A stretch of 64,000 nt of DNA. It comes from Candidatus Woesearchaeota archaeon (GTDB taxonomy: Archaea; Nanobdellota; Nanobdellia; Woesearchaeales; UBA10216). Position numbers and translations under genes: made by a program. The stretch is taken from positions 1,489 to 65,488 of the forward strand of contig JACQST010000043.1 of NCBI GenBank assembly GCA_016211185.1, read 5' to 3'. The first letter of the stretch is position 1. Each line of letters starts with the position of its first letter. Shown here one piece after another: positions 1,222 through 50,019 of the stretch. Below the pieces are notes generated by a model. It was not told where the DNA came from. It was given only the letters and a program-made list of their open reading frames with translations, and did not search any database.

Positions 1222-1812
1222 TTAGTAGACTGTTTTTTTCTTTTTGGCCTGTGTGTAGAACTCCTCTATTTTTTCTGTTTCGTGGCCCGGGGTTGCCTTT
1301 CTGTGCTCGTATGTTGCTTCTGTGCTGAATTCTGGCTTTTGGTATGTTACGCTTGTTTTTTGGGGTTGTGTGACTGTGTCATAAGGGTTTTCTGCTTGCT
1401 GCGCGTATTGTGGTGGTGTGTGGCTTGCAGTTGCCTCTTCTATTCTGGTGCCGTACTGTGCCTGTGCTTCCTGCTGCTTTGCCTGTGCTTCTTCAACAGA
1501 CTCCTCAAGAGGTTTTGCAGTCGGGGTTTCCTGCTGTGGCTGGCTGGCTGCAGTCAGGGAAACGTTTCTTTTCGCAGCCCACAGGAGCTTTGCCTCTATT
1601 GTTTCGAGCGTATCCGGGCTGGCTGCCTTCATGTGGGGAATTGGGAGCTGCTGCTTTTCCTGGTCTGAGATGGCTTCCCTTTCTGCCTCCTTCAGGAGCT
1701 TGTCTGTTTCCTCAAGCTCCTTCTTGCTCGCCTCCTCAAGCTCCTTCAGCCTCTTTATCTTTTCTGCCGGAGAAAGCTTCCTGAGTTCTTTTATTTCGTC
1801 TTCAAGCGTCAT
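1222..1812 (-). CDS. Hypothetical low-complexity/coiled-coil protein (196 aa)
   Basis: Track ORF; charged Lys/Glu-rich N- and C-termini with a Q/T/P-rich middle. It sits between two co-oriented genes with gaps of 5 and 10 nt. Confidence 0.45.
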   Translation of the reverse strand: MTLEDEIKELRKLSPAEKIKRLKELEEASKKELEETDKLLKEAEREAISDQEKQQLPIPHMKAASPDTLETIEAKLLWAAKRNVSLTAASQPQQETPTAKPLEESVEEAQAKQQEAQAQYGTRIEEATASHTPPQYAQQAENPYDTVTQPQKTSVTYQKPEFSTEATYEHRKATPGHETEKIEEFYTQAKKKKTVY

Positions 1813-1816
1813 CTGC

Positions 1817-3223
1817 TCACCATGTCAGCATGCCGTGCATCTTCTTGTAGTTTTTGTAGGTCTCATAGATGTCCTTTTTAACTGTCCCGTTTGCTTTTTT
1901 TATTTCATCAGCAATGGCTACCTTGTCCTCATGCTCTTTTTTGCCTTCCTTCTTCGGCGCCATTGACTCGAATATTTCTCCGATTCCGTCGAATACCGCC
2001 TTGAACGGCTCTATCAGGGAGGGGGCTGGCTTTTTTTCCGCTTGCCTTGGAGGCTCAAAGGTTTCTCCTCCTTCCATAAGGTAGTGCTTGAGTTCGTCGC
2101 CAAGAGCTTCCATGGATTCCTTTATTGAGTCGTTTATCATGCTCATCAGCTGCAGGTCTTCCTCTTCCCTCATCTTGATGTAGTTTTCTTCGTGGTGCTG
2201 GCTCCAGACGTATGCCCTCATTGTGAGGTCGAATTTTCCTGTGTGCATGGGTCCTCTCTGGTATCCTTCGCCGACATACTGCATGGCCGGCCTTGTCCTG
2301 AACATGAAGTGTATCAGTATGTATGGCTTGAATTTCCTGTATCCCGGGTCTTCCTTTTTGGCAAGAACCTCGACTTCTATCATTGAGCCTTCAAAGGCTG
2401 CTATCATGTCTGCTGATTCGAGTTTTTTCTGGTCGAGCTGAAGCCTTCTTATGTTCCTCAGGTATGGTTTTATCCAGCCCATGTAGAGCTTTATGGTTTC
2501 GTAGTGCTGCCTTAGGTATTTTATTATGAATTTCCTTCTCGTGCTGAGCTCGTTGTAGGTCCTTTTTTTCCATTCATAGAACTGCCTGAGCTTCCTCTTC
2601 AGGACTTCCTTGACCTTGTCGTTGAACTCAAGCCTGTCAACTTCGCTGTCGAGTTGGTCTATGTTTTTTATCCTGACCCTGAAGAACAGGTCCGGGAGTA
2701 TTGTGAATCCCACGCTTTGCGACAGCCCGTATACTGAAGCGGCGTTTTTCACTCCGCCCTCTACCTGGTCCACCCAGACTCCTTTCAGGGTTATTTCTGA
2801 GCTTTGCGCGCTGGGCCTGTCCTCGTATGAGTCTATGTAGTATTGCAGCCTTTCGTCAATTATTCTCAGTTCCCTAACTATCTGGAAGAGGGCCTTTATC
2901 ATCTCGCTTATGCCTCTGAGGTATCCTGCTGCTTTTTCCTGCTGTGACGCGAGCCTCTGTTCTGACACGCCGAAGAATGCTGACTGCTCTGAGGCGGCAA
3001 ACACGTCTGTGATTTTCGTGAAGGTTGTGTATCCCCAGTCGTACCTGAGGTGGTCTATTATCCAAAAGTATGCTGATTCTATGGGCTGGCCTGTGGACTC
3101 AACGACTATTCTGTTCCTGAAGTCAGGCTTAGGGTATCCAGTTGGTCTTTGGACATGCAAGAGGTGTTCCTCAGCGCTCTCCTGGCCAAACCCGTACCGC
3201 TTGAGCAGTTTTTCGTCAGCCAT
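1817..3223 (-). CDS. Hypothetical protein, 468 aa, no recognised domain
   Basis: Long uninterrupted ORF with plausible codon usage; it is the first gene of a three-gene co-directional cluster. Confidence 0.55.
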   Translation of the reverse strand: MADEKLLKRYGFGQESAEEHLLHVQRPTGYPKPDFRNRIVVESTGQPIESAYFWIIDHLRYDWGYTTFTKITDVFAASEQSAFFGVSEQRLASQQEKAAGYLRGISEMIKALFQIVRELRIIDERLQYYIDSYEDRPSAQSSEITLKGVWVDQVEGGVKNAASVYGLSQSVGFTILPDLFFRVRIKNIDQLDSEVDRLEFNDKVKEVLKRKLRQFYEWKKRTYNELSTRRKFIIKYLRQHYETIKLYMGWIKPYLRNIRRLQLDQKKLESADMIAAFEGSMIEVEVLAKKEDPGYRKFKPYILIHFMFRTRPAMQYVGEGYQRGPMHTGKFDLTMRAYVWSQHHEENYIKMREEEDLQLMSMINDSIKESMEALGDELKHYLMEGGETFEPPRQAEKKPAPSLIEPFKAVFDGIGEIFESMAPKKEGKKEHEDKVAIADEIKKANGTVKKDIYETYKNYKKMHGMLTW

Positions 3224-3277
3224 ATTGGTTCTCTGGGCTGTGCAGCTATTAAATCTTTTCCTTATTGCTTTTGTGCC

Positions 3278-4105
3278 TTACTGCCATCGCTTCATAACTG
3301 TTGCTACCTTGTCCGCGAGGTCTGTGGCTGTGAAGCCGTAGCCGTATTCCCTGTAAAGAAGGTCGCCTGCCATGCCTGAGATGAATGCTGATGCGCATGC
3401 AGCCATTATGAGGCTGTTTTTCTGCGCTGCAAGGCCTGCGCACAGCCCTGCAAGGACGTCCCCTGTGCCTGAGACAGTCATGCCTGCATTCCCTGTTTTG
3501 CTAAGGCGTATGCCCTCCCTGGATATCATGGTGTCTGTCCTGCCTTTTAGCAGGATAATGTTGCTGCCCGAGGCTTTCCTCGCGAGAGTTATTGATTCTT
3601 TTCCGCTTGCTTTGATGCCTGTGTTGCGCAGCAGGGTTTGGAACTCTTTGAGGTGGGGTGTTATTATTGCGTTCTCAGTATCCTTCAGCCCGATGGCTTT
3701 TATCGCGTCAGCATCTATCACTTTTGGGCACAGCGTGTTCCTGACAACTTTCCTGACAAGAGCCTGCGTCTGTTTCCTGAGCCCTATGCCGTTTCCTATG
3801 AGCAGGGAATCAAAGCCTTCGCTGAGCCTGATTAGCTTGTTGGCGTGAGCCTCTTTTAAGTAGCTGGCGTTTATTCTGACCGTCATGAAGTCCGGCCAGG
3901 CTCTTACAACGCGGGCAACGTCTCTTGGCGAAGCAATTACAACTGCGTCTGCCCCAGACCTGTACGCAGCCATGCCTGCAAGCATCACTGCGCCAGTGTA
4001 TTCAGGGCTTCCCCCGATTATCAGCACTCTCCCGTTTTGGCCTTTGTGGGAATCAGGCTTTCTTTTCGTGAGCTTTATGCTGCGCCATGTTATTAGTTCA
4101 GGCAT
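3278..4105 (-). CDS. nnrD: ADP-dependent NAD(P)H-hydrate dehydratase (YjeF C-terminal, carbohydrate-kinase-like domain)
   Basis: HKGQNGRVLIIGGSPEYTGA and the C-terminal GTGDVLAG motifs are typical of YjeF-C/Nnr2. Confidence 0.8.
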   Translation of the reverse strand: MPELITWRSIKLTKRKPDSHKGQNGRVLIIGGSPEYTGAVMLAGMAAYRSGADAVVIASPRDVARVVRAWPDFMTVRINASYLKEAHANKLIRLSEGFDSLLIGNGIGLRKQTQALVRKVVRNTLCPKVIDADAIKAIGLKDTENAIITPHLKEFQTLLRNTGIKASGKESITLARKASGSNIILLKGRTDTMISREGIRLSKTGNAGMTVSGTGDVLAGLCAGLAAQKNSLIMAACASAFISGMAGDLLYREYGYGFTATDLADKVATVMKRWQ

Positions 4106-4189
4106 GAGTTTTCTACACGCAAAGGCTATTTATGGTTATTGGTGTTGCCAAGAGAAAGTTTTAAATACGCAGTCTGGTGAGGGCAAAGC

Positions 4190-4375
4190 GTGGTAAGCAA
4201 AAAGGGCTACATAATCAGCTATGGTGACTGGTTCAAGGGCTTTATTATCGGAGCCCTTGTCGGGGCTGTCCTCGCTTATCTTGTGATTAATGGCATATTG
4301 AAGGTTCCGGCGTACACTGCAAAGGACGCTGCTTCAAAGGCCATGCTTCTGCTGCCGCTTGCGAAACGGTTTTGA
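4190..4375 (+). CDS. Small hypothetical membrane protein (61 aa)
   Basis: Single predicted TM helix (GFIIGALVGAVLAYLVINGIL); it fills an intergenic gap. Confidence 0.3.
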   Translation: MVSKKGYIISYGDWFKGFIIGALVGAVLAYLVINGILKVPAYTAKDAASKAMLLLPLAKRF

Positions 4376-4378
4376 AGA

Positions 4379-4798
4379 TTAACCTATCCTGTAGTCAAGG
4401 AAGGGCATCATCTTTATCAGCGATTCCCCTGCGAAGTCCCAGAAGTATGGCGCGGCAAATATTATTGCCCCAATCATGAGGGTGTGGTGGAACTTCTCGC
4501 CTACCCTTCCAACTATGGCGGCTGCCGCACTTACTTTTAGCATTGCGATTATCGCTATGAATGCCCTGACGCCGAACTCAACATAGCCTGTCACAGCCAT
4601 CTGCTGCCCTATGAGTCCCAGTCCCCATGCAACATTCATGCTTACGAAGGTGAAGAACATGGTTGCCGGTATTGCGTGAAGGCCATGCCCAAGCCATCCC
4701 ATTCCTCTTTCATCCTGGTGGACAAAGAAAAGCTCGATTATGCCTATTGCCGCGCCCATGAAAAGCGCAGGGACTACGATTAGCTGCGTCTCAGCCAT
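4379..4798 (-). CDS. Hypothetical integral membrane protein (139 aa, about 4 TM helices)
   Basis: Hydrophobic segments throughout the track ORF. Confidence 0.5.
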   Translation of the reverse strand: MAETQLIVVPALFMGAAIGIIELFFVHQDERGMGWLGHGLHAIPATMFFTFVSMNVAWGLGLIGQQMAVTGYVEFGVRAFIAIIAMLKVSAAAAIVGRVGEKFHHTLMIGAIIFAAPYFWDFAGESLIKMMPFLDYRIG

Positions 4799-4888
4799 GC
4801 GCTGATTCTGAACCAGCTATTATTTAAACCTTTGCCAAGCTCTTCTTGAGCGTTTTTAGAAAAGTTTTTATAAAGGCCTTGTGAAGGG

Positions 4889-6163
4889 TTGAAGATGAAA
4901 GAGGCAGGCACTTCTGTCAGGGCTATAAGGGTGCTGCTTGTTCTCGCTGTTCTTCTGATTGTTGTTCCTTCTGTGCTGTCTGAGACAATCCTTGAGAGAA
5001 GCCTTAACAGGCTGGGCGTTGACAAGAACCAATTCGATGTCCAGAAGATTTATGACAATTACCAGCCTTTCCTTGACTTTGTTGCTTACGCCATACTCTT
5101 CATAGGCGTCTCCATGATGGGTCTGAAGAAGACCTTTGGGGAATCAACTGTTGTGCCTGTAGTCGTAGGCATGGTTCTTGCGGTTGCCGCTGCCTTTTAC
5201 GCTTCTACCATTAAGTTCAAGCTGGGTGATGAACTTGGTCCCACTGCCCTCCTTATAGGAGTTGGGCTCGTCGGGTTCATGGTGTTTAATGTGTTCAAGG
5301 GCATGAATGTTGACGGGTTTCATTCTGCTGCGTGGGGGATAGTTATTGCTGGGGCTTTGATAGTTCCTGTAGCCGAGAAGGCAATGGCTGGTGTCCCCCA
5401 GGATAGTCTGTTGCGCACGATTTTAGACTGGGCGTATGTTATCCTTACAATTGCAACCCTTGTCCTGATAGTGGGCTTGTTCCGCTCAGTGTTTGGAATG
5501 TGGAGGGGCTCAACGCAGGCAACACAATCCACAGCAGCAACTTCAGCAGCTTCAAATACGCCATGGCCAAGTCACACACCTATGAGTCCAATGGGCGCAA
5601 CAGGCGCTTCTGGGACTCCGCCAACAGGTACAGGGGGAGGTAGTGGTCCGACTGGCAAGCCGCCGAATTTTGATCCCTTCAAGAAGGCACATAAAAACGC
5701 TGATACGATGGCAAAGTCTATGGAGAAGCGGTTAGTTCATAACATAAACGACAAACACCTTAAAAATATAGTTACCGCTTTGTCTGCAGTTCCGGCCAGG
5801 AACACAGATGCAAGCAAAAGCGCAGAAAAAGCCATAAACGAGCTTAAAGAGATAAACAGGGATCTAGATTGGGTGAAAAAATACGTGAGTGTTATGGACG
5901 CTGCTCTCGGTTCTGCATTCAGAAGTTCAAGTTCAGGAAAAGCTTCAATAGTGGCAAAAGGCCTTCTGGAAATCAATCAACAGATAATATTCATGGATTT
6001 AGCTATATCAAAATTATCTGCTCAGTTAGGGGACATGAAAACGGCTCCCGCTGCAACAAAGGTTTCACCCACCGATACAACTATAAAAGCATGTATAGGC
6101 CATGTTAAAGTTATACTGGTTGAACTTAGCAGGATAGAAGTTCAGATCTCTGCTGGACCTTAG
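4889..6163 (+). CDS. Membrane protein with N-terminal multi-TM domain, Ser/Thr/Pro/Gly-rich linker and helical C-terminal domain (paralog 1)
   Basis: The N-terminal 200 aa align clearly with the 6930..8204 protein. Shared segments include VVPSV.S..I...SL.R.GV.K..F.V..IYD.YQPFLDFVAYAILFIG and ADSLL.V..DW.YVIL. The linker is TQSTAATSAASNTPWPSHTPMSPMGATGASGTPPTGTGGGSGPTGKPP. Confidence 0.6.
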   Translation: MKMKEAGTSVRAIRVLLVLAVLLIVVPSVLSETILERSLNRLGVDKNQFDVQKIYDNYQPFLDFVAYAILFIGVSMMGLKKTFGESTVVPVVVGMVLAVAAAFYASTIKFKLGDELGPTALLIGVGLVGFMVFNVFKGMNVDGFHSAAWGIVIAGALIVPVAEKAMAGVPQDSLLRTILDWAYVILTIATLVLIVGLFRSVFGMWRGSTQATQSTAATSAASNTPWPSHTPMSPMGATGASGTPPTGTGGGSGPTGKPPNFDPFKKAHKNADTMAKSMEKRLVHNINDKHLKNIVTALSAVPARNTDASKSAEKAINELKEINRDLDWVKKYVSVMDAALGSAFRSSSSGKASIVAKGLLEINQQIIFMDLAISKLSAQLGDMKTAPAATKVSPTDTTIKACIGHVKVILVELSRIEVQISAGP

Positions 6164-24729: not shown

Positions 24730-26508
24730 ATGTCCATTGCTTTATCAATGGTGTTATCCAGAAAGCCTTTTAAAATGCATGGTTATCCTGCCGGCATGGA
24801 GAACTTCAAAACAGGCTTTTATTCTGAGCTTGTGTCTGCTCTGAGGAACAGCAGGTTCGATAAGGCTGAGTTCTCAAGGCTGAAATCGAGTCTTGCAAGT
24901 AAGTATTCCTTGAAAAGCATTCCGACAGATATTGAGGTAATGCTTAACCTGCCTGAAGAATCAAGGAAGCATATCAAGCTCGTGACCAAGCCTACACGGA
25001 CTGTTAGCGGCGTTGCAGTGGTTGCCCTTATGAGCGCTCCTCTGAGCTGCCCTCATGGGAGGTGTGTTTTTTGCCCTGGCGGCCCAGGCTCTGTTTTTGG
25101 TGACGTTCCGCAGAGCTATACAGGGAAGGAGCCTTCGACTATGAGGGCTATCAGGGCAGGTTACGATCCTTATGTCATTATGTTTAACAGGCTTGAGCAG
25201 TATGCTGTTTCGGGGCACAGCTTTGGCAAGGTGGAGGTTATTGTGCAGGGAGGCACATTCCCTTCTTATGACTGGTCGTATCAGGAGATGTTTGTGAGAG
25301 AAGCTTTTGCAGCGATGAACAGCTTTTCACGGCTTTTTTTCAGGAGGGAAGGGAAGTGGGAAGGGGAGCTGGATTTCGTGGGCTTCAAGGATTTCTTTGA
25401 TCTTCCTGGCGAGGTCGGGAGCTCTGAGCGCATGAGGAAGGTTCACTCAAGAATATTCGAGGCCAAGAACTCGTCACAGGCAAGGAGCCTTGAGGAGGAG
25501 CAGGAAGAGAACGAGTCTTCCAATGTGAGGTGTGTTGCGCTTTGCATCGAGACAAAGCCTGACTTCAGCAAGTCTGAGCACATCAATGACATGCTCAGGC
25601 TGGGGACAACGAGGGTTGAGCTTGGGGTGCAGACACTTTATGATGACGTCCTGTCAAGGGTTAACCGGGGCCACACCCTGCAGGACACTTTGGAGGCTGT
25701 GCAGCTTCTGAAGGATTCCTTCCTGAAAGTTGGCTTTCACATGATGCCAGGCCTTCCAGGCTCGGATTATCAGAGGGACATCGCTATGTTCAGGGAGCTT
25801 TTCGAAAACCCCGCATACATGCCCGATAATCTGAAGGTTTATCCCTGCATGGTTATGCCTGGAACAGAGCTTTACGATGACTGGAAGAGGGGGGATTTTG
25901 CTCCTTTGTCCACAAGGGAGGCTGCGGAAATAATAGCTGAGTCAAAGAGGTTTGTGCCTGAGTATTGCAGGGTCATGAGGGTGCAGAGGGATATTCCGAC
26001 TTATGTGACATCTGCAGGTGTTGACAGGACAAATCTCAGGCAGTATGTGGATATGATAAGGGCTGAGCAGGGGATTTTCTGTAGGTGCATAAGGTGCCGT
26101 GAGCCAATGTCAAGGAAGTTTGATTTGGGCAGGGCTGAAATCATAGTTCGGCGCTACGCTTCAAGTGGCGGAACAGAGGTATTTATTTCGGCAGAGGATG
26201 TTTCGTCTGATGTGATGCTTGGGTTCTGCAGGCTCAGGATTCCGTTCAGGCCGTTCAGGCCAGAGATAACCCCTGGCTCTGCAGGTGTGAGGGAGCTGCA
26301 TGTATTCGGCCCCGCAGCCTCTCTTAACAGAGTGGGGAGTGTTCAGCACAGGGGCTTTGGAAAGCTTCTTCTTTCAGAGGCTGAGCGTGCCGCGAGGGAT
26401 GAGCTTGGTGTGGAGAAGCTGCTCGTGATTTCAGGTGTCGGCGCAAGGAACTATTACCGGAAGCTTGGCTACGAGAGGGATGGGGCGTATATGGGTAAGA
26501 GGCTTTAG
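24730..26508 (+). CDS. elp3: Elongator complex protein 3 homolog (radical SAM plus GNAT; tRNA U34 carboxymethyl modification)
   Basis: CPHGRCVFCPGG radical-SAM cluster motif and a C-terminal GNAT (HRGFGKLLLSEAERAA). Confidence 0.85.
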   Translation: MSIALSMVLSRKPFKMHGYPAGMENFKTGFYSELVSALRNSRFDKAEFSRLKSSLASKYSLKSIPTDIEVMLNLPEESRKHIKLVTKPTRTVSGVAVVALMSAPLSCPHGRCVFCPGGPGSVFGDVPQSYTGKEPSTMRAIRAGYDPYVIMFNRLEQYAVSGHSFGKVEVIVQGGTFPSYDWSYQEMFVREAFAAMNSFSRLFFRREGKWEGELDFVGFKDFFDLPGEVGSSERMRKVHSRIFEAKNSSQARSLEEEQEENESSNVRCVALCIETKPDFSKSEHINDMLRLGTTRVELGVQTLYDDVLSRVNRGHTLQDTLEAVQLLKDSFLKVGFHMMPGLPGSDYQRDIAMFRELFENPAYMPDNLKVYPCMVMPGTELYDDWKRGDFAPLSTREAAEIIAESKRFVPEYCRVMRVQRDIPTYVTSAGVDRTNLRQYVDMIRAEQGIFCRCIRCREPMSRKFDLGRAEIIVRRYASSGGTEVFISAEDVSSDVMLGFCRLRIPFRPFRPEITPGSAGVRELHVFGPAASLNRVGSVQHRGFGKLLLSEAERAARDELGVEKLLVISGVGARNYYRKLGYERDGAYMGKRL

Positions 26509-46368: not shown

Positions 46369-49300
46369 TCAGCCCATGTAGGATGGCTTTTCGTCCTTTA
46401 TCTGTCTTGCCCTTGCCTGCCTTACCTGGTCTCTTATGCTTTCATATACCTCTTCTGTTTCTTTTGACACTGATGGCTTTATTTTCTTGAGGGATTCCTC
46501 GAAGTTTTTTGCAGTTACGGACTTCGCGTTCATGTCTTTCCTTAGTGCAAGTATCGCGGCTTCCCTGCAGACTGCCTCTATGTCTGCTCCTACGTATCCC
46601 TGGGTTTCTTCTGACAGCTGGTTTATGTTGACTTCCTTGAGGGGCATGTTCTTTGCGTGCACCCTGAAGATTTCTGTGCGGGCTTCCTGGTCAGGGACTG
46701 GTGTCAGTATTATCCTGTCGAATCTTCCCGGCCTGAGTAGTGCGGGGTCTATCATGTCTGGCCTGTTTGTGGCAGCTATCACGACGACGTCATACAGGTC
46801 CTCGAGTCCGTCTATTTCTGTTAGGAGCTGGTTTACTACTCTTTCTGTTGAGTGGCTGTCTGATGACATTCCGCGCCTTGGCGCTAGGCTGTCTACTTCG
46901 TCAAAGAAAACTATTGTGGGGGATGTCTGCCTGGCTTTCTTGAATATCTCCCTTACTGCCTTTTCGCTTTCGCCAAGCCATTTTGAGAGCAGTTCCGGGC
47001 CTTTTACCTGTATGAAGTTGGCTTCGCTTTCTGTTGCTACGGCCTTTGCAAGCAGGGTTTTTCCTGTTCCGGGCTCTCCGTAGAGGAGTATTCCCTTTGG
47101 CGGCTTGACTCCGAGCCTCTTGAATGCGTCGCCGTGCTTTATTGGCCACTCCACAGCTTCTATTAGTTCCTGCTTTACGTCTTCGAGGCCTCCTATGTCT
47201 GTCCATTTTATGGTTGGGACTTCGACAAGGACTTCCCTCATTGCTGAAGGCCTTACGACTTTGAGGGCTTCCTTGAAGTCCTTTCTTGTTATCATGAGCT
47301 TTTCAAGCAGTTCTTTTGGTATCGGCTCGTCTTCCTGGAGCTTGAGTTCTGGAAGTACTCTTCTTAGGACTATCATGGCCGCTTCCTTGCAGAGGGCTGC
47401 AAGGTCTGCTCCCACAAATCCGTGCGTTATGGCTGCTATTTCTTTCAGGTTGACGTTTTTTGACAGCGGCATGTTTCTTGTGTGTATCTTGAGTATGTCG
47501 ACTCTTCCCTCTTTTGAGGGAACGCCTATCTCTATTTCCCGGTCAAACCTTCCCGGTCTTCTGAGCGCAGGGTCGAGCAGGTTCGGTACGTTTGACGCTG
47601 CTATGACTATTACCTTTCCCCTGCTCTTTAGGCCGTCCATTAGCGCAAGCAGCTGGGCCACAACCCTTCTTTCGACTTCTCCGTGGACTTCTTCCCTTTT
47701 TGAGGCTATTGCGTCTGTCTCATCTATGAATATTATGCTCGGTGCGTTCTTTTCTGCTTCTTCGAATTTCTTGCGGAGGTTTTGCTCTGACTGGCCATAA
47801 TATTTGCTATTATGAAGTAGTAACAATCCCGATGTCATAAAGCTGTCATCTTCAACTGTAAAATCATATAGCTCCTGTTCGCCTGCATAGCTTATTGATT
47901 CTATCCACTCCCATGCAATATCCTTCCTTGTCAGCAGCTCATATTCCCTTTTTATGGCAGGGGTCAAGGCGTTGTTTCTGGAAGCTATTTTGTACAGCTT
48001 GCCGAGAGCATGCTCAGTGAATTTAGCCTTCCTGCAAACATAAATGTCATTATTCCTGCATTCTGAATAAGGAAGCCTTTTCCTTACAGACTCTATCAGC
48101 AACCGGGGTTCAGGTATATGCTCAGAATGCCTGTTTGTGGATCTGAGTTTTGAAAGCCTCGCCCTTTTCTTCAGGCTGGCCGGAACAATAAGTTTTCTGA
48201 ACTCTTCCCGTCCCTTATTTCCCTTTGTCGCCAGTTCGTACATCATTCCGAGACGGGTTTTATGCTTGTTGAGCTTTGTTGGGATGGAAAGCTTTAGCTG
48301 CATCAGAGTCTGCATTTCCTGAAGAAACCCATATGAGGAACTGTTGAGTTTCGGAGTAGGGTAATTCCCATTCATTGATACCGTTCCATCACCATCAAAA
48401 TATCCCTTGACAAATGCCGCCACTTCCTCTTTTGGCAATGAATAAAAGAGCGGGGGTATTGCGGGATTTCTTTTTCCATGAAGCATGCCGGATTCCTTGA
48501 TTAAGGCCGCAAGGGTCTTTGAGTAGACTATTACTCTTCCGTCAGGATACTCTCTTGGGTTGGTGATTGCAAACAGGCTGCGCAACAAATCCTTATATCG
48601 TTCCCTGAGCATCTCATCGTTGTTGGTAAAGGTGATTCCATCCTCAGAAACATATCCTTCAGACATGACCAGTCCAAGGTATTCAAGAAAATCAGGGGAT
48701 GTTTGTTCCGGTATCGTTATCCAGTTACTGCGGGATAGGTTCCTTCCCTTTGGCGCCTTTTTCCCGTTTTTCTTTTCAAGTCCTTCGAGAGAAAGTTTCT
48801 GGCTGGATTCCTCAAGATCTATCTTGTTTACTCTTGCAACGAACTGGCCTTCAGCTAAGTCTTCAAGTTTTTTCCAGACAAGGCCGCCGTTCTCATATAC
48901 CAAGAAAGGCTGGTTCTTTGAGCACATCATCCGAGTTCCGTTGCTAAAAGAAAGCCTGTATGCTGGAGCGATAAGTTTTGCCATATGTGTGATTTTTGAT
49001 TTCGATATTCGGCCCTTGGAATAGGCAAATGTCTTTATCGGCTGTGCAAGCTCAATGACTTTTATTTTATCATCCCTGATTTTTTTCCCCCTTGCATTGT
49101 CAAACATGTCCCTGGCCTTTATGTGTCCTTTGGGATTAGTGAATATTCTTGTATCCCCATCAACGCACATTATCTCCGGGCCATTGATGAGGATGAAGTG
49201 CGCGTTTGTCTCGTTTGCAACTGCCTTTGCGAGGAGCGTCTTTCCAGTTCCGGGTGGCCCATGCAGCAGGACTCCTTTAGGCGCCTCGATTCCGAGCCTC

Positions 49301-50019
49301 TCGAAGATCTCCGGGTGCTTCAGGGGAAGCTCGACCATCTCCCTGATTTTCTTTATCTCTTCCCTGAGGCCGCCTATGTCCTCGTAGGTTACTTCAAGGG
49401 CTGCCTCCTCTGACACCTCGACTGCCTCTGGGTTGAAGACTACCTCTGTTAAGTCGCTCACAATCACAGCCTGCTTCGGCATTGTGTCTACAACGAGGAA
49501 CTTTATGTCCCCAAACCCGAACCCGTAGACGTCCTCGTCAAGCATCCTGAATATGTCTTCGAACGGGCTGTGCGCGAGGGTCGCTCTTCTCCTTGTGCCC
49601 CCACCCAGCGCGACTATGTCTCCCTTCATTAGAACCCTCCCGAGAAGTCCCTGCTTGAACAGGTCTGATGATGCCCTGATTATGATGCCTTTTCTTGCAG
49701 GCGCTATGACAACTTTCTTGGCTTCCTTCACGTCTGCCTTCTGTATCGCTACTGTCTCGCCTATGCTTGTCTTTGTGTTCCTCCTTATTATGCCGTCCAT
49801 CCTTATTATGTTGAGGCCGATGTCTCCAGGGTATGCGCGGTCAGCTATCGCGACTGTTTTCCTTCCGCCTTCTATCTCTATTATGTCCCCTGGCCTGACG
49901 CCTATGTGCTGCATGAAGCTTGTGTCTATCCTCACTATTCCCTTGTTTACGTCGTCCTGCACCGCCTCTGCAACCTTGAGTTTCAGTTCTCGATCAGGCA
50001 TGGGTTCGAGTATTGGCAT
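46369..50019 (-). CDS. cdc48: Cdc48/VCP-like AAA+ ATPase (two AAA domains) interrupted by an intein
   Basis: N-domain [20 protein letters not shown] and two Walker A motifs ([30 protein letters not shown]). The D1 sequence GPEIM | CVDGD...LLLLHN | [30 protein letters not shown] shows a 453-aa insert. Confidence 0.9.
47809..49167 (-). mobile_element. Intein (453 aa) with a LAGLIDADG homing-endonuclease domain, inserted in the Cdc48 D1 domain
   Basis: It begins with Cys (CVDGDTRIF) and ends with HN followed by the extein Ser. LAGLIDADG-like blocks [17 protein letters not shown] and [12 protein letters not shown]. Removing it restores the conserved [30 protein letters not shown] sequence. Confidence 0.8.

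Follow-up and report, generated by a model that had tools for sequence, protein, structure and literature searches.

The Cdc48 gene of the window

The stretch of DNA analysed here, hereafter the window, comprises 64,000 nucleotides of contig JACQST010000043.1 (assembly GCA_016211185.1) from a Candidatus Woesearchaeota archaeon. It contains a gene for an AAA unfoldase of the Cdc48/VAT/p97 family, and an intein of 453 amino acids (aa) lies within the first AAA module (D1) of this gene. A first-pass annotation, made from the sequence alone, had described an open reading frame (ORF) of 1216 aa with a 453-aa insert at 47809-49167 that begins with Cys and ends in HN before a Ser, and all of these particulars were found to be exact. 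The features of the locus are listed below; here and throughout, a slash within a sequence marks the junction between extein and intein, or the corresponding insertion point.

46369..50019, minus strand: Cdc48/VAT precursor gene, 1216 aa plus stop (ORF list, TIGR01243, Pfam domains)
49168..50019, minus strand: N-extein, residues 1-284, the N domain and first part of D1, ending ...INGPEIM
49237..49260, minus strand: Walker A GPPGTGKT, precursor residues 254-261, within the N-extein
47809..49167, minus strand: intein, 453 aa, precursor residues 285-737, Cys1...His452-Asn453 (profiles, AlphaFold2, Foldseek)
47794..47808, minus strand: Ser+1 nucleophile and pore loop 1 SKYYG, start of the C-extein
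46369..47808, minus strand: C-extein, precursor residues 738-1216 plus stop, with Walker B, the remainder of D1 and the whole of D2

Against the TIGR01243 CDC48 model the full-length precursor reaches 1070 bits (cut-off 802.65), and its Pfam domains (CDC48_N, CDC48_2, two copies of AAA and two of AAA_lid_3) give an N domain followed by two AAA modules, with pore loops KYYG in D1 and KWLG in D2. Thus, the host has the domain order of Cdc48/VAT/p97 and lies above the subfamily threshold. The corresponding NCBI protein (P0153, 1210 aa) starts at Met7 and is identical to ORF residues 7-1216; its label reads “AAA family ATPase [Candidatus Woesearchaeota archaeon]” and nothing further. The first-pass annotation called the gene essential, which is presumably so; the window covers 64 kb of the genome, and a second paralogue is possible.

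The claim that removing the insert restores a contiguous Cdc48 sequence was borne out by alignment of the exteins with an intein-free homologue. The spliced extein (763 aa) matches Thermoplasma acidophilum VAT (PDB 5g4f) with E=2.5e-246, and the two sequences are identical and ungapped across the splice junction, which corresponds to the position between VAT Met261 and Ser262 (counted along the 5g4f alignment). The pore-loop-1 tyrosines, VAT Tyr264/Tyr265, start two residues past the insertion point, and in pore loop 1 of VAT nucleotide-binding domain 1 they are conserved and essential (PMC5423775). The junction lies 23 residues downstream of Walker A, and Walker B (IIFIDE) starts on the C-extein side, at precursor residue 762, so that the intein sits between the two motifs. 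Therefore, the target of the intein is the substrate-gripping pore-loop-1 region of D1 and not the P-loop: the earlier placement in D1 was right, while its description as the P-loop region was not.

Anatomy and predicted fold of the intein

The intein opens with CVDGDT at residue 285 of the ORF and closes with LLLHN at residue 737, and the residue preceding it (position -1) is Met. Its subdivisions are as follows.

48733..49167, minus strand: N-terminal Hint half, intein residues ~1-145 (beta strands 7-139; TIGR01445 over residues 1-90)
48910..48921, minus strand: block B, S83-K-N85-Q86-P-F, non-canonical (MAFFT and ungapped HMMER alignments)
48223..48732, minus strand: LAGLIDADG endonuclease domain, intein residues ~146-315 (two stretches of PF14528; model helices)
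48655..48687, minus strand: LAGLIDADG motif 1, intein residues 161-171, LGLVMSEG, acid E170
48385..48414, minus strand: LAGLIDADG motif 2, intein residues 252-261, YFDGDG, acid D260
47926..48222, minus strand: helical accessory domain, intein residues ~316-414, six helices (model secondary structure, approximate boundaries)
47809..47925, minus strand: C-terminal Hint half, intein residues ~415-453 (strands 417-438, 442-445, 449-452)

Block A is CVDGDT, block F is ELYDFTV (with D435) and block G is LLLLHN. Searched alone, the insert matches three curated profiles above their thresholds, namely Pfam LAGLIDADG_3 (PF14528; E=1.4e-17, 64.1 bits against a cut-off of 22.5, in two stretches), Pfam Intein_splicing (PF14890; E=4.9e-13, 49.6 bits against 35.8) and TIGR01445 intein_Nterm (31.1 bits against 24.5). 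The two LAGLIDADG-like blocks that had been noticed on first reading are thus recovered, as the two motifs listed above. Among solved proteins, phmmer gives its best matches with V-ATPase inteins of archaea (7qsu, 7qss and 7qst; E=7e-16 to 4e-14).

An AlphaFold2 model of the intein, built on a ten-sequence family alignment, has a mean predicted local distance difference test score of 90.9 and a predicted template modelling (TM) score of 0.89. The top matches of this model in a Foldseek search of the PDB are solely inteins and LAGLIDADG enzymes: the TliVMA intein comes first (7qss, E=1e-29, TM 0.75/0.79, over the whole chain), followed by PhoVMA, PI-PfuI, PI-TkoII and PI-SceI. More than 40 solved inteins were matched, dozens of them mini-inteins, which align with the Hint part at a root-mean-square deviation of ~2.2 A over ~120 residues. 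Hence the insert shows an intein fold by structure search as well as intein profiles by sequence. In the model, helices 158-170 and 246-260 carry the LAGLIDADG motifs, each ends in an acidic residue and each is followed by a beta hairpin, which is the arrangement of a double-motif LAGLIDADG enzyme. The accessory domain is indicated by the model and also by the full-length match to TliVMA, a three-domain intein. A plan of Hint domain, homing endonuclease and accessory domain (HINT/HEN/ACD) has been reported for TliVMA, PI-PfuI, PI-TkoII and PI-SceI (PMC8966425); according to the model, the intein of the window follows it.

A family of inteins at the same site

When GTDB species were scanned with one genome each, 27 full-length relatives emerged at the same site, with 44-65% intein identity; they belong to Woesearchaeota, Nanoarchaeota, Aenigmatarchaeota and some archaeal metagenome-assembled genomes (MAGs) with loose labels. 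All 27 conform to GPE[IV]M/C...HN/SK[YF]YG and have S-x-N-Q-P-F as block B, and 25 have open frames. The acidic residue of LAGLIDADG motif 1 is present in 27/27 and that of motif 2 in 26/27, the exception (L025) being without a match to the motif 2 pattern.

Among the best 120 Cdc48 proteins, most are ~756-760 aa long and intein-free, and about fifteen measure 935-1283 aa. The two closest Cdc48 proteins, P0154 (89% identity) and P0156 (86%), are intein-free. Inteins at the site of the window were found in the following proteins.

P0155: same-site intein; extein identity 89%, intein identity 66%
P0158: same-site intein; extein identity 88%, intein identity 58%
P0165: same-site intein; extein identity 81%, intein identity 51%
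P0263: same-site intein; extein identity 79%, intein identity 50%
L001: same-site intein; extein identity 71%, intein identity 60%
P0226: same-site mini-intein of 155 aa, from Woesearchaeota; extein identity 80%, intein identity 39%

The mini-intein of P0226 is devoid of exactly the endonuclease and accessory domains, and keeps S-S-N-Q-P-F, the block F Asp and the terminal HN. An exhaustive HMMER search (1624 representative proteins at E<=1e-3) also brought up related inteins at the paralogous D2 site (KGPELL/C...HN/SKWVGESE), at the equivalent point of another AAA family (SPSIM/C...HN/SKFVGEAE) and in the P-loops of MCM and V-ATPase. An initial impression from a word-index search with the intein alone, which gave only four fragments, that the intein is extremely rare, was rejected by the HMMER, extein and genome-scan searches.

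Several further observations concern the same host family. In L001 (GCA_016180275.1, JACPBN010000066.1), positions 1233-5171 hold a complete, intein-containing Cdc48 ORF of 1312 aa, but the gene as called begins within the intein and covers only the last 779 aa (2832-5171), an error of annotation for which the intein is responsible. Contig JAGVXW010000009.1 (L009, from 3001-4386 and downstream) of Candidatus Woesearchaeota archaeon RIFCSPLOWO2_01_FULL_53_31 carries two large inteins in one open Cdc48 frame. The first (462 aa, Cys1) occupies the site of the window, or D1-a, and the second begins with Ser1, reads SLPYEEK...GGIFAHN/SEENLR and has the canonical block B TGDH. The two are separated by six extein residues, SKFYGQ, which are the pore loop itself. 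Mutual exclusion of inteins at D1-a and D1-b, which we had considered, is therefore rejected. Site D1-b (YYGQ/S) lies six residues downstream of the site of the window and holds Ser1 inteins of ~489 aa. Other Cdc48 proteins of DPANN archaea have D2 sites at GPELL/C...HN/SKWVGESE and WVGE/S, and another Cdc48 intein site follows GEVERRMVSQLL; these further sites occur in P0157, P0167, P0174, P0178, P0186, P0240, P0246, P0025, P0056, P0136 and P0133. Around pore loop 1, both AAA modules are hot spots of intein insertion. A Cdc48 relative of 1007 aa (P0175) has three AAA modules, with the D1-type pore-loop segment present twice, at residues ~237 and ~510, before a D2-type module. Finally, two Candidatus Saccharibacteria MAGs (L034 and L035) match intein query residues 153-453, which cover the endonuclease and the C-terminal half, at 25-26% identity, and related LAGLIDADG inteins therefore occur in bacteria of the candidate phyla radiation.

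Splicing residues and a block B without histidine

The terminal splicing residues, Cys1, His452-Asn453 and Ser+1, are all present. In a six-sequence alignment the invariant positions include C1, S83, N85, Q86, D260, D435, H452 and N453, and the C...HN/S pattern, including Ser+1, is found in all 25 same-site relatives with open frames. The insert is accordingly an intein, as the first-pass annotation stated, judging by its profiles, its fold and its invariant termini; the same cannot be said of it as a fully canonical one. Block B typically contains T-x-x-H, a catalytically important motif with documented exceptions that is not strictly defining, and here S83-K-N85-Q86 stands in its place.

Gln86 occupies the His position in a MAFFT alignment with VMA (VTPVH) and MCM (VTPTH) inteins, and falls on the His in four ungapped HMMER alignments, to PabCDC21-1 (TPTH) and to three PolII inteins (TVDH). 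The aligned block B segments of these solved inteins are RIRVTPTHPFFV for PabCDC21-1 and ETTVDHPVLVYENG for the PolII inteins. A gapped HMMER alignment to the VMA inteins left the placement of block B ambiguous, and was set aside once the MAFFT and ungapped alignments had settled it. A distant relative, P0009, has His at the Gln86 position (SANHPF).

A census covered 163 aligned segments of inteins, drawn from the best 152 representative matches; this position is held by His in 112, Gln in 23, Thr in 16 and Asn in 6. The MCM-site relatives in the census have Thr or Asn, and the Cdc48-site family has Gln. Gln is thus a minority state (23/163), and we rejected the idea that the His-less block B is a unique feature; it is common to the whole family, D2-domain members included. 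The block B His has been called essential in many inteins, with “a very small subset”, the Tko CDC21-1 group, naturally devoid of it, and bulky residues at -1 can compensate for its loss; natural inteins without this His that nevertheless splice have thus been documented (PMC6333167). Since Thr and His of block B are replaced by Ser and Gln, the N-terminal junction would have to be activated in some other way. Guided by that study, we regard Asn85 and Gln86, both invariant, and the bulky Met at -1 as plausible candidates.

An empty syntenic site and the evolution of the intein

Two further loci allow occupied and empty sites to be compared directly. The window, the intein-free locus L003 (GCA_053533055.1, 89% extein identity to the window) and the intein-bearing, syntenic locus L004 (GCA_016192945.1) have a common gene order: a ~135-aa ORF, Cdc48, a ~118-aa ORF, GatD and a DUF2391 protein. 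Therefore, the three are orthologous loci that differ in intein occupancy. At the empty site of L003, GCACATTTTATTCTAATAAATGGTCCTGAAATAATG / AGCAAATATTATGGCCAGTCGGAGCAAAACCTTCGC, the protein is identical to the window flanks over +-12 aa and 61/72 nucleotides (nt) are the same; immediately around the junction, GAxATAATG/AGCAAATATTATGGCCAGTC, 28/29 nt match. A native domain at this position in intein-free homologues, which the first reading had named as grounds for abandoning its claim, was looked for here, and the syntenic orthologues have nothing at the site.

The intein also differs from its surroundings in composition, with a GC content of 0.436 and a GC content at third codon positions of 0.466, against 0.506 and 0.570 for the exteins; the other genes of the window have a GC content of 0.494 +- 0.019 (n=13). 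Compared with its counterpart in L004, the intein shows proportions of non-synonymous (pN) and synonymous (pS) differences of 0.21 and 0.79, respectively, and is therefore under coding constraint. The non-synonymous divergence (dN) from L004 is 0.25 for the intein and 0.067 for the extein, so that the intein evolves ~3.7x faster. Against relatives, the extein dN is 0.064-0.067 with synonymous sites saturated. The combination of patchy presence, an empty syntenic site and a mini-intein allele is, as judged from these sequences, the pattern of a homing intein.

Favoured interpretation

Altogether, the observed anatomy, fold, conservation, distribution and empty syntenic site lead us to consider it highly likely that the insert is a class-1 intein (Cys1, Ser+1, C-terminal Asn) with a nested LAGLIDADG endonuclease and an accessory domain, lodged between Met284 and Ser285 of the mature Cdc48/VAT, and that it is a homing element. 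As far as can be deduced from the anatomy and from established intein chemistry, the whole precursor would be translated, and D1 would presumably be non-functional until splicing, because 453 residues, wedged in beside the pore loop, separate Walker A from Walker B. Splicing would begin with an N-S acyl shift by Cys1 at the Met(-1)-Cys1 bond; Ser+1 would then attack the thioester in a transesterification; cyclisation of Asn453, helped by His452, would release the intein; and an O-N shift would remake the peptide bond between the exteins.

The endonuclease of the free intein would be expected to cut intein-less Cdc48 alleles at GGxCCxGAxATAATG/AGCAAATATTATGG, and repair from an intein-bearing copy would then spread the element. 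Such homing would account for the patchy distribution among DPANN archaea. The D2 paralogous site in the window's own gene is an unlikely target of the enzyme, because only 31/60 nt are identical to the D1 site. We consider the endonuclease probably active, or active until recently, because alleles that are 44-66% identical keep its catalytic acids as well as many positions of its core. Such conservation points to selection by homing, the sole selection expected to maintain endonuclease features.

Several points weigh against this interpretation. The intein has no His in block B, a residue usually important in the first splicing step, and an individual allele could splice poorly or conditionally. 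Splicing, endonuclease activity and the role of the compensating residues are predictions from sequence. Two relatives, L029 and L031, have broken frames: their intein matches (L029:954-2211 and L031:3001-4405) have lengths that are not multiples of three and contain stops in straight translation. These may be decaying inteins or assembly errors; taken at face value, they show that decay does occur in this intein family. The synonymous divergence (dS) is saturated (pS 0.68-0.82), and pN against pS and the dN ratio are given instead of dN/dS. Finally, in 23 genomes the identity of the intein to that of the window shows no correlation with the identity of the extein (Spearman rho 0.24, p 0.27), as predicted by horizontal homing; this result may also partly reflect saturation, with intein identity reaching a plateau at ~45-52%.

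Alternative explanations

We considered whether the intein could be a splicing-competent but immobile relic, with an endonuclease that no longer cuts, inherited vertically and heading toward a mini-intein or loss. This is the main rival, which we regard as possible but rather unlikely. The close solved relative PhoVMA has a degenerated endonuclease (PMC8966425), the mini-intein of P0226 occupies the same site, the intein changes faster than the extein at non-synonymous sites, and the nearest relative's intein, at 66% identity, gives no evidence of very recent transfer. However, across diverged full-length alleles the E170 acid is kept in all 27 and the D260 acid in all but one, both align with the acids of the active TliVMA endonuclease, and many other positions of the endonuclease domain are invariant, which homing selection alone would be expected to preserve. 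In addition, empty sites persist in close relatives, and intein similarity is decoupled from extein similarity. A conditional splicing switch that responds to redox state at Cys1, temperature or metal ions, and thereby gates the D1 pore loop and unfoldase activity, appears improbable to us: the sequence holds nothing specific to regulation, the close relatives P0154 and P0156 do without an intein, and the distribution is patchy, as for a selfish element. The idea draws on reports of conditional splicing for the ATPase-domain inteins of Pho RadA and mycobacterial DnaB, on the position of the intein directly at a functional loop, and on a His-less block B that could slow the first step or raise its context dependence. 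A related and broader proposal, to which we give little credence at present, is that the pore-loop-1-site inteins (Cdc48 D1-a, D2-a and the second AAA family) form one old clade in which an invariant Ser-x-Asn-Gln took the place of the block B Thr/His, with an uncharacterised N-terminal activation, possibly through hydrogen bonding by Asn85/Gln86 and a bulky Met or Leu at -1. With the intein adjoining the pore loop, splicing could then gate unfoldase activity post-translationally in these genome-reduced DPANN archaea.

It is very improbable that the insertion does not splice and the gene is dead, with its function supplied by a paralogue outside the window. The missing block B His, the frame breaks inside the inteins of L029 and L031, and the restriction of the window to 64 kb, with the rest of the genome unseen, would all be compatible with such a loss. 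The 1216-codon frame is nevertheless uninterrupted, the extein dN is low while synonymous sites are saturated, and the splice-junction residues are invariant across alleles 44-66% identical; moreover, the His-less block B is family-wide, D2 members included, and would not persist if it abolished splicing. As for the insert being an artefact of assembly or a Cdc48 domain native to the lineage, the sole point in favour is that the window is a metagenome-assembled contig, and we regard this reading as refuted by the alignment of the extein with VAT, the Foldseek matches, the empty site of L003 and the 27 relatives. At least 27 genomes that were assembled independently carry this insertion, syntenic orthologues are cleanly free of it, and the insert matches inteins both in fold and in profiles. 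We therefore retain the class-1 homing intein as the favoured interpretation.

Relation to known inteins

Among solved proteins, the VMA-b inteins TliVMA (7qss) and PhoVMA (7qst), described by Beyer and Iwai in 2022 (PMC8966425), are the best matches in both sequence and structure. They too combine Hint, LAGLIDADG and accessory domains, start with Cys1, end in HN and carry the endonuclease at the canonical split site of Hint, and the LAGLIDADG acids of the intein of the window align with those of the active TliVMA enzyme. In contrast, their host is V-ATPase subunit A, where they occupy a P-loop site, identity is 20-22%, their block B has the canonical T-x-x-H (VTPIH) in place of S-K-N-Q, and their hosts are hyperthermophilic Euryarchaeota rather than DPANN archaea. 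PI-PfuI (1dq3) and PI-TkoII (2cw7) are likewise full-length structural matches (E ~4-5e-20, TM 0.65-0.71) that join Hint, LAGLIDADG and an extra DNA-binding domain, but they reside in ribonucleotide reductase and DNA polymerase, share 15-16% identity and have other accessory domains.

With regard to block B, the nearest parallel that we found is the Tko CDC21-1 group (PMC6333167), a set of class-1 inteins in which block B has no His and position -1 is a bulky Leu; the corresponding residue is Met in the window and Leu in D2-site relatives. Their host, MCM, and the substituting residues are different. Multi-site hot spots, with insertion points within a few residues of a conserved ATPase motif, have been described for haloarchaeal MCM (PMC10643990) and for DnaB (PMC4760082). 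Cdc48 of DPANN archaea similarly has at least D1-a (M/S), D1-b (Q/S) and the paralogous D2 sites, in another host and with other intein families.

In a survey of Anaeramoeba inteins, CDC48 ATPase is among the host families of singleton inteins, and these singletons are said to resemble orthologous-site inteins of bacteria or archaea, or other Anaeramoeba inteins (PMC10710043). The Anaeramoeba CDC48 intein shares the host family with that of the window, but is eukaryotic and belongs to a set in which most members have no obvious endonuclease; the DPANN Cdc48 family is absent from the survey's text (PMC10710043). ATPase-domain inteins are the commonest kind, and Cdc48 is outside the top 15 archaeal hosts listed in PMC4760082. 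Automatic annotation at JGI already labels P0240 as “AAA+-type ATPase/intein/homing endonuclease”. A literature search whose scope did not extend to the supplementary tables of PMC4760082 and PMC10710043 found no paper on the DPANN family, the pore-loop site or the block B variant. Inteins in the Cdc48 host family have thus been recorded before, and the intein of the window is an ordinary member of its same-site family.

Other features of the window

Genes near Cdc48 are archaeal (GatD, GatE, aEF-1alpha, Elp3, DnaK and a P-type ATPase). No further inteins were detected outside the Cdc48 ORF when family hidden Markov models (HMMs) and 152 intein-bearing proteins were compared with the six-frame translation of the window. 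ARAGORN found no tRNA genes in the 64-kb window, and no Rfam family reached its gathering threshold there. The coding strands are strongly purine- and A-rich, with an AT skew of -0.3 to -0.6 over minus-strand genes. Plus-strand ORFs that run antisense to the Cdc48 gene are most likely shadow ORFs, not genes; their length follows from the purine-rich coding strand. Three examples and two other ORFs are listed below.

46436..47083, plus strand: antisense ORF over the Cdc48 gene
47105..47800, plus strand: antisense ORF over the Cdc48 gene
48560..49024, plus strand: antisense ORF over the Cdc48 gene
24730..26508, plus strand: Elp3-like radical-SAM protein, 592 aa
8758..10215, minus strand: aEF-1alpha ORF, TTG start, 485 aa

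In the Elp3-like protein, ELP3_N ends at residue 91 and Radical_SAM begins at residue 262 (profile position 74), leaving ~170 unassigned residues between them; the scan with intein HMMs and phmmer gave no match in this ORF. In the aEF-1alpha ORF, GTP_EFTU begins at residue 59, and the true start is probably further downstream.

Significance

Current understanding of inteins is unchanged by this finding, and its value for intein biology is modest. For annotation, recognition of the intein gives the correct mature Cdc48 of 763 aa. The naturally His-less block B, together with the mini-intein derivative, could suit the study of first-step activation without His, and the predicted LAGLIDADG enzyme, whose empty target site is known, is a candidate for a new meganuclease specificity. 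For DPANN archaea, the finding means that a well-populated intein family targets the translocating pore loop of an AAA unfoldase, and not its P-loop.

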